Source: a bacterium (lineage in GTDB: Bacteria; Patescibacteriota; Minisyncoccia; Phycocordibacterales; DATDWN01). Taken from it: a DNA stretch of 64,000 bases. Of this stretch, positions 43,849 through 48,207 are shown piece by piece. The stretch spans positions 1,233 through 65,232 of the forward strand of contig JBAXLH010000004.1 of NCBI GenBank assembly GCA_037134875.1, given 5' to 3'. The notes under the pieces are model-generated. The model worked only from the letters and a program-made list of their open reading frames with translations. It was not told the DNA's origin and did not search any database. Numbering within the stretch: position 1 is the first letter of the stretch; the number at the start of each line of letters is the position of its first letter. The position numbers and the translations under genes were made by a program.

Positions 43849-44469
43849 ATGAGAGATTTTCTGAATTACTTTGGTCAACTCAGGATGTATTCGTTGGTTG
43901 ATCTTATATTATTACTTGTTGTTATTGGTACAGGTACGGAGCAACTCATTGGAGCTGTTGTTTTGCATATTGCATTTTTGGTTTTCCTCGAAAGTCGGCA
44001 TTCTCATTCGTATAGAAAACAAACGCCAGAATGGATATCCTACATCCTCGCGATTTTTGGTCTTGTGTTGTATGGGAAAATTGAAGGCTTCATATATTTG
44101 ATTTTCAGTTATTTGTACACAAAGAAAAACAAGGGTACTGCTTTTATGAGTCCGCTTGTGAGGGGTTTTCAGAACTTTTTTATAGTTGCTGGTATTATTG
44201 GATATCAGAATCCGATCACATATCTAGCCGGAGGATTGCTGTGTCTCAGAAATTTGGCAGGGGATTTGCGAGATACTGAAAAGGATAGGGGAGAGAATAT
44301 GAGGACGGTACCTGTTATTTTGGGAATACGGAAAAGTATCAAGCATATTCATCTTGTTGCTATGATTGCGACGTCGGTTGTTTGGTGGTCGCTCTCGTCA
44401 ATTTCTATTTACTGGCTTCTCTTGGTTATTTTGATTGAAGTTTCTACCTACTATCTGACACCGAGATAA
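43849..44469 (+). CDS. UbiA-family prenyltransferase-like membrane protein
   Basis: 206 aa polytopic protein with an Asp-rich motif NLAGDLRDTEKDRGEN. Confidence 0.4.
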   Translation: MRDFLNYFGQLRMYSLVDLILLLVVIGTGTEQLIGAVVLHIAFLVFLESRHSHSYRKQTPEWISYILAIFGLVLYGKIEGFIYLIFSYLYTKKNKGTAFMSPLVRGFQNFFIVAGIIGYQNPITYLAGGLLCLRNLAGDLRDTEKDRGENMRTVPVILGIRKSIKHIHLVAMIATSVVWWSLSSISIYWLLLVILIEVSTYYLTPR

Positions 44470-44519
44470 TTTGTGATTTTGATTTTTTGTGATAGACTGC
44501 GTATGTTAATTTAAGTTTA

Positions 44520-44590
44520 CGGGGTGTAGTATAGCGGTAGTATACCTGTTTTGGGAACAGGCGGCCCGAGTTCGATTCTCGGCACCCCGA
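44520..44590 (+). tRNA. tRNA-Pro (anticodon TGG)
   Basis: Acceptor cggggtg/caccccg, anticodon stem cctgt/acagg with loop ttTGGga, T-arm ccgag-ttcgatt-ctcgg. Confidence 0.75.
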
Positions 44591-44785
44591 CAATCAAAAA
44601 CGGAGTTTTTGTTCCGCCGAAAATCGAAAGCCGGAGCGGGTACCTAGTCAGCAGACTAGGTCGCGAGGCGGGGTCGCGGAAATTTCCGAGTGACGACGAG
44701 GAAATTATCCGTGACCGATTCTCGGCACCCCGACAATCAAAAACAAAGTCTCTGTTCCGTGACCAATTCTCGGCACTCCGATAAG
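44573..44785 (+). repeat. tRNA-Pro 3'-end direct repeats (att-like) bracketing element copy H
   Basis: The 29-mer cgattctcggcaccccgacaatcaaaaac occurs at 44573-44601 (tRNA 3' end) and identically at 44716-44744. A degenerate third copy ttccgtgaccaattctcggcactccgataag lies at 44755-44785. Confidence 0.8.
44602..44715 (+). repeat. element family copy H (tRNA-linked module: ccggagcgggtacc-[cctagtcagcagactagg]-tcgcgagg...gacgacgaggaaattatccg)
   Basis: Aligns with copy G after tRNA-Arg. It shows compensatory changes in the hairpin (ccagtcg/cgactgg in G versus cctagtc/gactagg in H). Confidence 0.55.
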
Positions 44786-44812
44786 ATTTTAATTATTTTC
44801 TAAATAAAAACA

Positions 44813-44884
44813 CGGGGCATGGTGTAACGGTAACATTCACGATTCGGGTTCGTGAGACTCTGAGTTCAAATCTCAGTGCCCCGA
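44813..44884 (+). tRNA. tRNA-Pro (anticodon CGG)
   Basis: Acceptor cggggca/tgccccg, anticodon stem cacga/tcgtg with loop ttCGGgt, T-arm ctgag-ttcaaat-ctcag. Confidence 0.75.
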
Positions 44885-45040
44885 CAAAAACCAACTATTT
44901 TTATAATATAAAAACACTTGACAAGTGTGGTATTTTTGTTATAGAATATTTCTGTCAGTATGGGAAACCTGCTGATCTTTTCCTGCCTTGCTTTCGGGCT
45001 TGGATGGGAAATGTAATTCCTCAAGAAGGAGGGACCAAAA

Positions 45041-45808
45041 ATGCAAACGGCATTTTGGATCCTCGGGATCATCTATTTCTTGATCGCAATTGTTTTTGCG
45101 GTCAAGAAGACCCGCGAAGTTTTCGTCGGGTCGGTCGAGTGGCCCCGCCGGTACTCCTGCCAATACTATAACAGGAGACAGTGGTGGAAGAAGCAGGTAG
45201 TACCCTGCCTGGGCCAACTGGCCCTGATAGGGGTCTGCTTCCTCTTCTGGGCAACCGTCGGGTTGCCCGCGTGGGTGGCGACCATACCGGTCCGCCGACG
45301 GCAGGCCTGCGAGGTTCAGCGGCGGCGGGAAGAGGATTTGGCCCGTAATAAGGCACGGGCTGAGCGGGTGGCGAAATGGCGGGCGGAGCACCCACCTGTG
45401 CTCTATTACAACAAGAACAACGGCGTTGTCCGTGTCGTCCGCAAGGGCGCCTACGACAACGCTGTTGTGGAGCGGGCTCGCCGGGTTCGCAATGGCGAAG
45501 AGCCGAAAGGTTGCTTCGTCTTCGCGGGTAATCCGGTCATCCTGTTTCTCCACACCTCGGCTGAGGTCAGGGTACCGGAGTGGTCGGCGGGGAAGCTGTC
45601 GGACTTCGACCGGCTCGTGGCAGGCGATTTTGGGCCTGTCGTCGTCGAACGACGGCGGGACATTCTCGTTACTTTCAGTTCGGGGGAGGCGGAACCTTGG
45701 ATGTGGGAACCCTATCGCCAGGGTTCCGACGAGAAGAGGAGGCTGGAGCAGGCGCTCCAGTACCTCCTTCACCAGGACGTTCCCCCCGACGTCCTCGCCG
45801 ACAACTAG
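45041..45808 (+). CDS. GC-rich (about 62% GC) hypothetical membrane protein, probable horizontally acquired cargo
   Basis: 255 aa with two predicted TM helices and an Arg-rich stretch. Composition is sharply different from the ~35% GC background. Directly 3' of tRNA-Pro(CGG), terminator at 45843-45868. Confidence 0.5.
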   Translation: MQTAFWILGIIYFLIAIVFAVKKTREVFVGSVEWPRRYSCQYYNRRQWWKKQVVPCLGQLALIGVCFLFWATVGLPAWVATIPVRRRQACEVQRRREEDLARNKARAERVAKWRAEHPPVLYYNKNNGVVRVVRKGAYDNAVVERARRVRNGEEPKGCFVFAGNPVILFLHTSAEVRVPEWSAGKLSDFDRLVAGDFGPVVVERRRDILVTFSSGEAEPWMWEPYRQGSDEKRRLEQALQYLLHQDVPPDVLADN

Positions 45809-45842
45809 TTCATTAAACCGAGCCTAACCGGATGGATAGGTG

Positions 45843-45868
45843 GCCCAGTCGTAGGACTGGGCTTTTTC
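45843..45868 (+). terminator. rho-independent terminator closing the GC-rich island
   Basis: gcccagtcgtaggactgggctttttc. Confidence 0.5.
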
Positions 45869-45913
45869 TTTTGCAAAATTTTTTGCCGTGATACTATGTG
45901 AATATTAACAAAT

Positions 45914-46225
45914 ATGCCATCTCAAACATTTATAAAAAACAAAGAGGACTTCGTGTGTGAAAAGTGCGGTTTTGCTGTGCAGGGAAATGGCTACACAAAC
46001 CATTGTCCGCAGTGTCTCTGGTCCAAGCATGTGGATGTTCATCCGGGCGACAGGGCAGAGAGTTGTGGAGGAATGATGGAGCCGATTCGTGTGGAAGTCA
46101 AAAAAGGTGAGTACACAATCATTCACAAATGCGAAAGGTGTGGACTGGAGCGACCAAACAAAGCAGTCAAAGACGACAATTTTCAAATGCTCGTGCAGAT
46201 CTTGGCGGAGAATGCACACAGATGA
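45914..46225 (+). CDS. RNHCP-domain zinc-ribbon protein
   Basis: 103 aa with CEKCGF...YTNHCPQC...KCERCG Cys clusters (RNHCP signature). Confidence 0.5.
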   Translation: MPSQTFIKNKEDFVCEKCGFAVQGNGYTNHCPQCLWSKHVDVHPGDRAESCGGMMEPIRVEVKKGEYTIIHKCERCGLERPNKAVKDDNFQMLVQILAENAHR

Positions 46226-46246
46226 TTATCTTGATATACTGTATGT

Positions 46247-47077
46247 ATGGAAGGACAAAAAGAATTTTTATTACCCGAGACGGTGGAAAAGGATGAATCG
46301 CTTGCGAGAAAATTGCAAAAAGATTTATTCAGAGCGTGTGAAAAAAGTAATTTTAATTTAGTTAGAATTCTCCGAGAAAAATTTGAAAGAGAATATCCAG
46401 ATCAGCTCGAGGGGGTTGAGGCTCTGTTTGGTTTTGTTGATTGTCTCAGAGATACAGACAAGTTGGACAGGGGAGAAGTGAAGCACAAGGACAGATCAAA
46501 GGTTTATGAAGAATTAACTCAGTATCAATTTCTCGTTAGTCATTTCATAAAAGAAAACTCGGAGGACAAAGAATTTCTCACTTTGTTTTGGAATGCGTTA
46601 CACAAAATATCAGCGCCTGGATATATACGAGAATTTAATATTTATAAACATGGAATACTGACACAGGTAGCAACGTTTAAAATTTTTGAAAAAATCGGTG
46701 AGAATCCAACAATGTCTCACCCAAAAGAAGATGCATTCAAATCAATCGATATGTGGGTTGGAGAAGATGCAGTGCAAATAAAAGGTGATGCGCGAGCTAC
46801 CAAACTCGAATTGGTTGAGGTAAAAAAAGAAGGTGTTGTGGGAGTACCTGGCATTATTATTGATAAAAATAATCAGAGCCGTTATTTCTCGAGTGAGATG
46901 TTCGGCAAAATCCAGAGATTTAAAGTAAAATTTGAAGAATACAAAAAATATTTGGGCAAGGAACATATCAAAGCCTACTTTTTGGTCATCCCGTTTTCAA
47001 TGATAGATCCAGTGACAGGAGAGCCCAGTGCCGAGCTTGTCGCAGAAGCCAAAAGTAAAATCGACCAAATGAATTAG
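46247..47077 (+). CDS. hypothetical protein
   Basis: 276 aa; no motif recognised. Confidence 0.4.
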   Translation: MEGQKEFLLPETVEKDESLARKLQKDLFRACEKSNFNLVRILREKFEREYPDQLEGVEALFGFVDCLRDTDKLDRGEVKHKDRSKVYEELTQYQFLVSHFIKENSEDKEFLTLFWNALHKISAPGYIREFNIYKHGILTQVATFKIFEKIGENPTMSHPKEDAFKSIDMWVGEDAVQIKGDARATKLELVEVKKEGVVGVPGIIIDKNNQSRYFSSEMFGKIQRFKVKFEEYKKYLGKEHIKAYFLVIPFSMIDPVTGEPSAELVAEAKSKIDQMN

Positions 47078-47126
47078 TCATATTTCTGGCTACATTTTTT
47101 GATTTTACAAAATAAAATAGGAAAAT

Positions 47127-47168
47127 CTGTCAAAAGTGCTTGACAGATTTTTCATAGTATGCTATCAT
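47127..47168 (+). promoter_or_regulatory. promoter with palindromic upstream motif TGTCAAAAGTGCTTGACA driving GC-rich RNA 1
   Basis: -35 TTGACA 47140-47145, 17-nt spacer, -10 TATCAT 47163-47168. The -35 is part of the inverted repeat tgtcaa-N6-ttgaca, which is also present at 58172-58186. Confidence 0.5.
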
Positions 47169-47175
47169 TATATCA

Positions 47176-47667
47176 GATAAGGTAGCTCAAGGACGGTGCC
47201 CCCGCCCGAGAGTTTAGCCCAAAAGGGCCTACCATCTACCGGATCCGCTTGGGGCGGTTCGGTTTTGTTCCAAGTCGCAGGACTTGGGACTAGGGGACAC
47301 TGATGTGCCAAGGGGTATGTCAGTGAAATGGCCGCCGGTCCGACCGGTCCTAGGAGAGGAGGATGGCGAAGTAGGGAAAGTACGGGTTTACCCCGGAAAA
47401 TCCGCCCGAAAAGCTTAGTTCGCCCTCGTGCGAACCACCTTCTCCCCGAAAACCTGTTGAGTTCCAAGGGACTTGATGGGTAGGGTGTAATGCGCACAAA
47501 CAGTGGCCACTGTTTGTCCGCGCGATCAGGGTCGGTTCGTCGTCAAGGCGGGCCAAAGGTCCTCTGGGGTTTCTCCCTAGAGCACGGCTTCAGAAGCCGT
47601 AGGTTCCGCTCCGCGGACCGACCCTGATCAACACAGAACGGACTCTTCGGAGGACCGTTCTTTTTCT
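47176..47667 (+). ncRNA. unclassified GC-rich structured RNA (~490 nt) with own promoter and intrinsic terminator
   Basis: About 58% GC in a 35% GC background with no convincing ORF. Long-range complementarity (gatcagggtcggt ... accgaccctgatc) and many local hairpins. Terminator gaacggactcttcggaggaccgttctttttc at 47635-47667. Confidence 0.45.
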
Positions 47668-47733
47668 TTATACATTTGCCAGATATGAAAATCCACCACA
47701 CGTGCGTGTGATGGGTTATTTTTTGTACTATTT

Positions 47734-48207
47734 TTACGCGAGGAAAATATCCACGCAATTTTTTTCAATAAATGTTGCCAGATCGCTCGACGATTTGCGA
47801 AGCTCGGAAATACGAGCGGTCGACCTTTCCCTGTTTATGTCAGTTGGTTGCAAATAAATCATAAAACCAGCAGTGGCGATGATTGGAATGAGTGACCATG
47901 TATCAATCGCTCTCGGCATACCCCCGTCTTTTCCGAGGCTCATATTATAGCGGGCGACTGCAATTGCCAGCTTGTTCAAAAATTGATCTTGTGCCAAGTT
48001 GACGGGTATCACGACCCATGGATATGGCTCGAGATTTTTTACATGACCGGCACAAGAACAGGCTGTTTTGTAGCCGATTTTCCAGAGAGTTTTGACGAGG
48101 ACCCTAATACCTTCCTCGACATAGTTAAAACCAATATATTCAAGATTTAGGTCTGGTTCGAGAGGGATAATCTCGTGGCCTTCAAAATCGAATTGCGAGT
48201 TGAACAT
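47734..48207 (-). CDS. hypothetical protein
   Basis: 157 aa, Cys pair CSCAGH; no family recognised. Confidence 0.35.
   Translation of the reverse strand: MFNSQFDFEGHEIIPLEPDLNLEYIGFNYVEEGIRVLVKTLWKIGYKTACSCAGHVKNLEPYPWVVIPVNLAQDQFLNKLAIAVARYNMSLGKDGGMPRAIDTWSLIPIIATAGFMIYLQPTDINRERSTARISELRKSSSDLATFIEKNCVDIFLA

Follow-up and report, generated by a model that had tools for sequence, protein, structure and literature searches.

A GC-rich membrane-protein cassette with a structured leader RNA, probably added laterally at a variable tRNA-Pro spot in a Paceibacterota genome

Genomic islets linked to transfer RNA (tRNA) genes, and the cassettes known as 'morons', consist of a single gene with its own promoter and terminator, have a composition and codon usage unlike those of the host, and occupy a tRNA-adjacent spot where the cargo varies and where partial duplicates of a tRNA 3' end lie nearby. 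These features recur in a cassette built around a gene for a 255-residue membrane protein (45041-45808, + strand) in a 64,000-nucleotide stretch of contig JBAXLH010000004.1 (the whole stretch is referred to below as the window), from a genome of the Paceibacterota (Patescibacteria, or candidate phyla radiation, CPR) that is low in guanine plus cytosine (GC). Unlike the known islets and morons, the GC-rich island that carries this gene has no integrase, no flanking pair of attachment (att) sites and no prophage context, and the cassette family itself, untranslated regions (UTRs) included, is conserved across distant genomes.

Two further kinds of system invite comparison. Translational cis-regulatory leaders, such as riboswitch platforms, RNA thermometers and autoregulatory leaders, are structured 5' UTRs, and the island gene is likewise preceded by a structured 5' UTR directly upstream of a single protein family, in which the helices covary and the Shine-Dalgarno (SD) sequence is paired within a short hairpin. 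Unlike the known translational leaders, it falls outside the 4227 families of Rfam 15, and no switching helix is supported among the 8 + 4 examples at hand. Bacterial coding regions, for their part, are reportedly subject to selection for local messenger RNA (mRNA) secondary structure, as Katz and Burge are said to have described in 2003. The native coding sequence of the island gene is similarly more stable than synonymous-codon permutations of itself, and differs in magnitude, with a z-score of -6.2 compared with -3.7 to +1.35 in 20 control genes.

We consider it probable, though by no means certain, that an accessory cassette comprising promoter, leader, coding sequence and terminator was laterally added to this low-GC Paceibacterota genome at a recombination-prone spot.

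The island gene and its tRNA-Pro spot

The window as a whole has a GC content of 39.2%, and its longest run at or above 52% GC (scored in 150-nt segments) extends from 45055 to 45902, a length of 848 nt over which GC averages 59.4% and peaks at 70.7%. The 768-bp open reading frame (ORF) of the island is 61.1% GC, which bears out the description in an earlier note of an island of about 62% GC that jumps out of low-GC surroundings. GC content at codon positions 1, 2 and 3 is 0.648, 0.430 and 0.754 in the + frame, with values of 0.31-0.50 for the third position (GC3) in neighbouring genes; the order GC3 > GC1 > GC2, seen in the + frame only, fits a gene from a GC-rich genome and thus indicates a true coding gene. 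Codon choice differs from that of native genes for every amino acid checked, with CGG making up 45% of arginine codons as opposed to 4%, GGG 47% of glycine codons as opposed to 6%, CCC 43% of proline codons as opposed to 7%, and CTG 32% of leucine codons as opposed to 9%. An ORF of 277 residues lies opposite the gene on the minus strand; it was rejected as a coding candidate because its codon-position GC (0.72/0.42/0.61) is in the wrong order and it has no support from the family. The cassette and the elements upstream of it are as follows.

44520-44591, + strand: tRNA-Pro(TGG), found by ARAGORN and Rfam, 450 nt upstream of the gene; anchor of the variable spot
44709-44759 and 44756-44784, + strand: two partial direct repeats of the tRNA-Pro(TGG) 3' end, resembling att scars
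44813-44885, + strand: tRNA-Pro(CGG), found by ARAGORN and Rfam, 156 nt upstream of the start codon
44918-44947, + strand: sigma-70-type promoter TTGACA-18-TAGAAT, 11 of 12 consensus positions matched, tied best in 44400-47800
44957-45043, + strand: structured 5' leader, from upstream conservation, covariation and a covariance model
5' end of the leader, + strand: leader helix P0, a hairpin with a GNRA loop
44979-45011, + strand: leader P1/P2 domain, from RNAalifold and pair counting
45017-45034, + strand: leader helix P3, covering the whole SD sequence GGAGGG (45028-45033)
45041-45808, + strand: gene for the 255-residue protein, supported by codon periodicity, homologues, AlphaFold2 models and an excess of RNA structure
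45842-45873, + strand: intrinsic terminator, in which a T-tract follows a GC-rich stem of 9 bp (45842-45863)

The SD sequence lies 7 nt ahead of the ATG, and a terminator that the earlier note had placed at 45843-45868 was recovered at almost the same position. With a promoter and a terminator of its own, the island gene is, judged by these consensus matches, an autonomous unit. A hydrophobic upstream ORF of 17 codons (44971-45024, + strand, MGNLLIFSCLAFGLGWEM) overlaps the leader; it is not kept in the homologues and is probably fortuitous. When the 3' UTR of the window copy (45809-45870) was compared by eye with those of homologous loci (labelled L006, L007, L010, L013, L015, L012, L098 and L100), shared motifs were seen within each of two subfamilies of leader described below: subfamily A has ACCCGAGC and a terminator stem of CCACGAGC/GCUCGUGG, and subfamily B has AAAAUCCAA..UUGGUC. 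The entire transcription unit, beyond the coding sequence alone, appears to have been inherited together.

The protein is encoded on nine contigs, of which five loci were fetched from different runs and sources (an NCBI metagenome-assembled genome (MAG), a JGI metagenome, two Logan run assemblies and an ENA assembly). All five assemblies are 100% identical to the window along their full length, and four of the five cross both junctions of the island; given such independent assemblies, a chimera or misassembled contaminant is very unlikely.

The neighbourhood belongs to a conserved syntenic frame. The CCA-adding enzyme encoded 3 kb upstream is 78% identical to enzymes of Parcubacteria/Paceibacterota MAGs, and 80 related Paceibacterota loci were fetched, 10 of which were scanned for tRNA genes. 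The order RNaseY-HU-(trypsin-like)-RNHCP-tRNA-Pro(TGG)-YraN-CCA-exo/endo-phosphatase-XerC-like is shared by the relatives with contigs that reach across the flanks, and the nearest gene of the Phage_integrase family (38118-39107) is itself part of this conserved order. No relative of the 255-residue protein occurs in any of the 80 loci. tRNA-Pro(TGG) stands between YraN and RNHCP in all 10 relatives scanned, and tRNA-Pro(CGG) is found at this locus in none of them. The interval between tRNA-Pro(TGG) and RNHCP differs in content in each of the five close relatives examined (L018, L019, L022, L028 and L026): an ORF of 311 residues with an HExxH metalloprotease motif in L018, an unrelated ORF of 185 residues in L019, homologous ORFs of about 200 residues in L022 and L028 (alpha/beta hydrolase-like by eye only), and almost nothing at the tRNA-Pro(TGG) spot in L026. 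Judged by this synteny, the island gene is a lineage-specific insertion. A different islet of about 410 bp and 58% GC was observed at the same tRNA-Pro(TGG)/RNHCP spot of L028 (573-983), where it carries an ORF of 68 residues and 68% GC whose Gly/Lys-rich product resembles, by eye only, KGG-repeat stress proteins; GC-rich single-gene islets may be recurrent at this site.

Duplicated tRNA 3' ends are the usual trace of site-specific integration, and a 20-mer from the tRNA-Pro(TGG) 3' end recurs exactly at 44717-44736 and with three mismatches at 44765-44784, where none would be expected by chance; similar duplicates are present in L018 and L025. The second tRNA, tRNA-Pro(CGG), has a near-identical counterpart (68 of 73 positions, with compensatory changes in the stems) on a contig of about 35% GC from which the gene is missing, which argues that this tRNA is no high-GC import. 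Its co-transfer with the gene was considered and rejected, given this near-twin on a gene-less low-GC contig and the divergence of the copy in L100. Just ahead of the duplicated tRNA 3' end, a GC-rich element of 53 nt (44664-44716) is 96% identical to a segment of L018 (9863-9915) that sits elsewhere in that locus, with tRNA-Arg on one side, the CCA-enzyme gene on the other, and direct repeats of about 28 nt at its borders. L077, L090 and L031 have weaker copies, and the sequence may represent a small mobile or repeated element.

The protein family

The earlier note had found no homology recognisable for the protein, and this is true of the conventional searches: a word-indexed search returned only the 255-residue protein itself, and neither Pfam, NCBIfam, PHROGs nor PADLOC matched it. 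The claim did not survive an exhaustive HMMER scan of 1.84 billion representative proteins, which found 18 remote homologues of similar length and 30-42% identity; a profile search enlarged the family to roughly 35 remote homologues at 18-42% identity, the best of them about 36-38% identical over the full length. Shared motifs include NPPVLYYNT-NGVTAVVRK, H-x-S-A, G-(W/R)-LSDFDDL and ERR-x-DIFVPF. In the four annotation libraries no family was matched by more than one of the 18 members, and PHROG gave two isolated single-member matches near E = 0.003-0.005.

The two transmembrane (TM) helices and the arginine richness that had been read from the sequence were confirmed, with hydrophobic segments at about residues 1-25 and 51-84 and an arginine content of 11.4% compared with 4.3% lysine. 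Arginine richness is a feature of the family, the ratio R/(R+K) being mostly 0.5-0.8. AlphaFold2 modelled the full protein with a predicted local distance difference test (pLDDT) score of 84.5, as a TM helix (residues 2-29), a long helix (45-116) composed of the second TM segment, TM2, and an Arg/Glu-rich segment, and an alpha/beta domain (120-243). Modelled by itself, the C-terminal domain (135 residues) reached a pLDDT of 90.2 and a predicted template modelling (pTM) score of 0.83. Both sides of TM2 are positively charged. Foldseek comparison of the two models with the PDB gave nothing significant (best E = 0.04, TM-score about 0.2), and the best PDB sequence-profile match (E = 0.014) fell on the TM region; an RNase-H-like or YqgF identity was rejected, with Foldseek E-values of at least 0.04 and TM-scores of about 0.2. 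The models point to a two-pass membrane-anchored protein with an Arg-rich helix beside the membrane and a globular domain of 135 residues for which no solved structure gave a match.

All homologues are found on metagenomic contigs or in unclassified MAGs, and in varied chromosomal contexts. One lies behind SecY in a ribosomal-protein operon in which no L30 gene is called between S5 and L15, a missing L30 being a CPR trait. Others lie beside DnaX, near ApbE, or after the genes for ribosomal protein S2 and elongation factor Ts (EF-Ts), and two of the contigs are CPR-like (apparent lack of L30; short EF-Ts). Several members also adjoin tRNA or tmRNA genes: those of L100 and L101 follow a cluster of tRNAs, Pro(CGG) and Ala(CGC) among them, that of L103 follows tRNA-Tyr and tRNA-Thr, and that of L012 follows the 3' end of the transfer-messenger RNA (tmRNA) gene.

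The leader and the predicted fold of the coding sequence

Between promoter and start codon every homologue has a leader of about 85 nt, although the set comprises only 8 + 4 sequences. The leader is better conserved than the proteins, with 21 invariant columns among the eight leaders of subfamily A (to which the window copy belongs) as against 30-42% protein identity. The subfamily A consensus reads GGGAAACC..CCAUUUYCUACC-(variable hairpin)-GGACUGRAAAUGCAAUUCCA..GGAGGAACC-AUG. In this structure P1 is a helix of 7 bp, whose pair 34/65 occurs four times as C-G and four times as U-A, P2 is a hairpin of variable sequence, and P3 pairs UCCA with the UGGA of the SD sequence; in many members a further hairpin, at the 5' end, carries a GNRA loop (GAAA or GAGA). 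Across the eight sequences 94.6% of cells are paired and double changes occur in five pairs, and the covariation score is 0.242, compared with 0.105 for shuffles (none of 500 reached the observed value) and at most 0.105 for slid registers. The SD sequence is sequestered in the predicted folds of both the window copy and L010.

A covariance model of this leader, R1, scored the window copy at 69 bits and, when run against 1.33 Mb of related DNA, recovered nine leaders of the family with E-values of 1e-14 to 1e-21; the sole other match, a weak one, fell exactly on a leader of subfamily B. The four leaders of subfamily B differ in sequence and have a similar architecture, again with a hairpin that pairs with the SD sequence. 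Neither the window leader nor the leaders of the homologues matched any family of Rfam 15. At the gathering threshold Rfam found only tRNAs in the window, and only tRNAs and tmRNA in the homologue loci; over 44886-45553, which takes in the leader and the first two-thirds of the coding sequence, nothing was found at E <= 5. Sub-threshold overlaps at the 3' end of the gene (radC on the minus strand; anti-hemB and ctRNA on the terminator) each scored less than half of the gathering score. The leader is a candidate cis-regulatory element that probably gates translation initiation, and it is not put forward as a demonstrated riboswitch.

One family member is found in L015 (7189-7782, and also in L016 and L017), where the called start is the AUG of GGAAAUGAAA, within the conserved leader. 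The site homologous to the normal start reads ATG CAC TGA in L015, and the TM helices are absent; this copy seems to be frameshifted or N-terminally truncated.

The predicted fold of the coding sequence has a free energy of -386 kcal/mol. Dinucleotide shuffles give -322 ± 8 kcal/mol (z = -7.9), and synonymous-codon permutations, which keep both the protein and the codon usage, give -329 ± 9 kcal/mol (z = -6.2). The excess is spread across many local hairpins of 7-14 bp, with six of nine 150-nt segments below z = -2 and the lowest at -4.7. The antisense strand is also in excess (z = -5.4), so that causes at the level of RNA and of DNA cannot be separated. All 12 family coding sequences examined have negative z-scores (mean -2.6), among which those of L012 (-6.3), L104 (-4.3) and L098 (-3.4) are also strongly negative. 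The 20 control genes include GC-rich ones of 59-66% GC, and 19 of the 20 score -2.2 or above; the 17 controls that entered the test average about -0.4, and the first 10 family genes differ from them at p of about 0.005 (Mann-Whitney). High GC content as a generic cause was rejected, since the GC-rich control genes show no such excess. One hairpin, at a recurring position in the alignment, pairs the ERR codons with the VPF codons; it was rejected as a special element, as it is mostly predisposed by the amino-acid motif and its extra stability is modest (mean z = -1.3). The excess structure might serve to stabilise the transcript, to set the pace at which a membrane protein is translated, or to let the protein's own Arg-rich helix bind the transcript.

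Origin and meaning of the cassette

In the account that we favour, a genome of low GC content from the Paceibacterota (Patescibacteria/CPR) would have gained the cassette laterally, at a point downstream of tRNA-Pro(TGG). The donor would most likely have been an unsampled higher-GC organism or mobile element of the same broad group, not an actinobacterial host; the family is seen only on metagenomic contigs, two of them CPR-like. Once in place, a host-type sigma-70 promoter would drive an mRNA with a leader of about 85 nt, made up of a conserved P0-P1-P2 domain and the SD-pairing hairpin, and initiation of its translation would probably be gated by a ligand, a protein or temperature. The extreme GC content would have two sources, namely the composition of the donor and a tendency of the family towards GC-rich, highly base-paired coding RNA.

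A number of observations weigh against this account. No homologue of more than 42% identity exists among the 1.84 billion representative proteins, so that the direction and the date of the transfer come from composition and synteny alone. All 12 family genes for which DNA was fetched are richer in GC than their flanks, by 3-14 points, which makes the GC contrast an imperfect clock and an imperfect donor signature. No integrase or recombinase is present in the island, which holds a single ORF without a Pfam domain, and no repeats bracket it, all copies of the tRNA-Pro(TGG) 3' end (44574, 44717 and 44765) being upstream of the gene. There is no second copy of the tRNA-Pro(CGG) 3' end anywhere in the window either. 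The tRNA linkage proposed in the earlier note holds insofar as tRNA-Pro(CGG) adjoins the gene; the att-like repeats derive from the other tRNA, tRNA-Pro(TGG), and do not enclose the island. With respect to the leader, covariation draws on eight sequences only, folds of single leaders are no more stable than shuffles (z = -0.1 to -1.9), and an anti-sequestor helix GGAA/UUCC that was considered is unsupported, with an A-C mismatch in four of the eight aligned sequences.

The GC excess of the whole family invites the view that GC-richness arose, or was kept, in place by selection for a base-paired mRNA and an Arg-rich protein, and that the gene is possibly an old resident. The 12 homologous genes lie on contigs of about 37-54% GC, and their GC3 exceeds that of the neighbouring genes in the four contigs for which this was determined; part of the excess is, by virtue of being family-wide, a family trait beyond any donor signature. 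The arginine bias of the proteins and the folding excess over synonymous shuffles (a mean of -2.6 as against about -0.4 in controls) also fit this view. It is nevertheless unlikely, as the window copy, at the extreme of the family with +22 GC points, goes well past the family norm, its codons are shifted for all amino acids checked and not just at paired sites, and the gene is missing from all 80 related loci despite a conserved syntenic frame where the flanks are informative. The GC-rich controls that lack a structural excess further indicate that structure is not a simple outcome of GC content. An origin as the remnant of a prophage or integrative element, a 'moron' integrated at a proline tRNA whose integrase and structural genes were later lost, would explain an autonomous unit of deviant composition with its own promoter and terminator, the duplicated tRNA 3' ends close by, and the tRNA or tmRNA genes that adjoin other family members. 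Such an origin is improbable in view of the lack of phage genes nearby, the position of the repeats to one side of the gene, and homologues that occupy core chromosomal contexts such as the ribosomal-protein operon; moreover, there is no family-level PHROG match, and scans of IMG/VR for the family, tRNA-Pro(CGG), the scar sequence and the leader pattern gave no matches. Nor did anything in the island, with its single ORF without a Pfam domain, suggest an integron cassette, although attC-like sites were not specifically searched for.

Recent acquisition from a high-GC donor, and more speculatively from an actinobacterial host of an epibiont, had been the proposal of the earlier note. The foreignness of the gene is upheld by its absence from the 80 loci, the variable cargo of the spot and the alien codons; the donor was not found. 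Among the homologues there is no sign of an actinobacterial or other high-GC source, in a search library that carries no taxonomy. An actinobacterial host, for which only the high GC content and codons such as CGG and CCC speak, is a highly implausible donor: homologues reach at most 42% identity, the inspected contigs are of 37-54% GC and two are CPR-like, none bears a sign of actinobacterial origin, and the conserved leader is common to those homologues. Detected transfers into Patescibacteria come mostly from other Patescibacteria, and very few from Actinomycetota (PMC12455944). That the island might be an assembly chimera or contaminant, or a structured non-coding RNA instead of a protein gene, is suggested by the frequency with which GC-rich islands of AT-rich genomes are RNA genes, by the fold excess over dinucleotide shuffles and by the 277-residue ORF open on the opposite strand. 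Against this stand the four assemblies that are identical across both junctions, with 100% identity in all five, a strong periodicity of three bases, in which only the + frame has the order GC3 > GC1 > GC2, the conserved protein motifs (NPPVLYYN, G-LSDFDDL and ERR-DIFVPF), the confident AlphaFold2 models and the lack of an Rfam match, which together leave it very little probability.

A different emphasis is conceivable, although we regard it as doubtful, in which the unit is centred on its RNA: the leader would represent a new riboswitch-like class for a membrane-protein family known to date from CPR-like metagenomic contigs only, and the coding sequence and 3' UTR motifs would be selected as structured RNA. 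Possible reasons for such selection include transcript stability, membrane targeting, and binding by the protein's own Arg-rich helix.

Other GC-rich segments were noted in the window. A second island (47140-47668, + strand, 58% GC) has a promoter match of 11/12 (47140-47168), and a hairpin and T-tract at about 47630-47668 resemble a terminator. The + strand is without an ORF of at least 60 residues, and the island's codon-position GC (0.62/0.56/0.56) has no periodicity; its fold has a z-score of -5.8 relative to shuffles, with no Rfam match and nothing similar in the 80 related loci. It looks like a structured RNA of about 490 nt, new to Rfam. This island lies in a segment (46247-48207) that also holds an ORF of 276 residues, with weak sub-threshold similarity to the MjaI restriction endonuclease, and one of 157 residues, and none of the three was detected among the 80 loci of the relatives. 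No more than about 100 nt separates RNHCP from the trypsin-like gene in L018 and L026. The segment appears to be a second insertion adjoining the first. A third GC-rich region (58300-59990) is non-coding over 58300-59090 and then contains a gene for 123 residues (59099-59470), with an N-terminus that resembles a signal peptide, a TM segment and a tail rich in proline, and one for 91 residues (59607-59882), which has no homologue in a word-indexed search. Codon periodicity is clear in both, and both are GC-rich orphans without a Pfam match and with excess structure in the coding RNA (z of about -4). The logic of an RNA-centred unit may extend to these hairpin-rich orphan genes at 59099-59882.

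As a transfer event the acquisition of this cassette would be ordinary, small genomic islets being a known class. The synteny across 80 loci documents a gene-gain hot spot by tRNA-Pro in the streamlined Patescibacteria, a group in which little is known of how genes are acquired. Further value lies in a rare, uncharacterised family of membrane proteins, with a C-terminal domain that is confidently modelled and has no match among solved structures, and a conserved structured leader absent from Rfam, a candidate cis-regulatory RNA in a phylum with few known. The synonymous sites of the coding sequences, moreover, appear to be tuned for base pairing, and if this should prove general for GC-rich orphans in genomes of this kind, GC contrast alone would be an unreliable mark of recent import.

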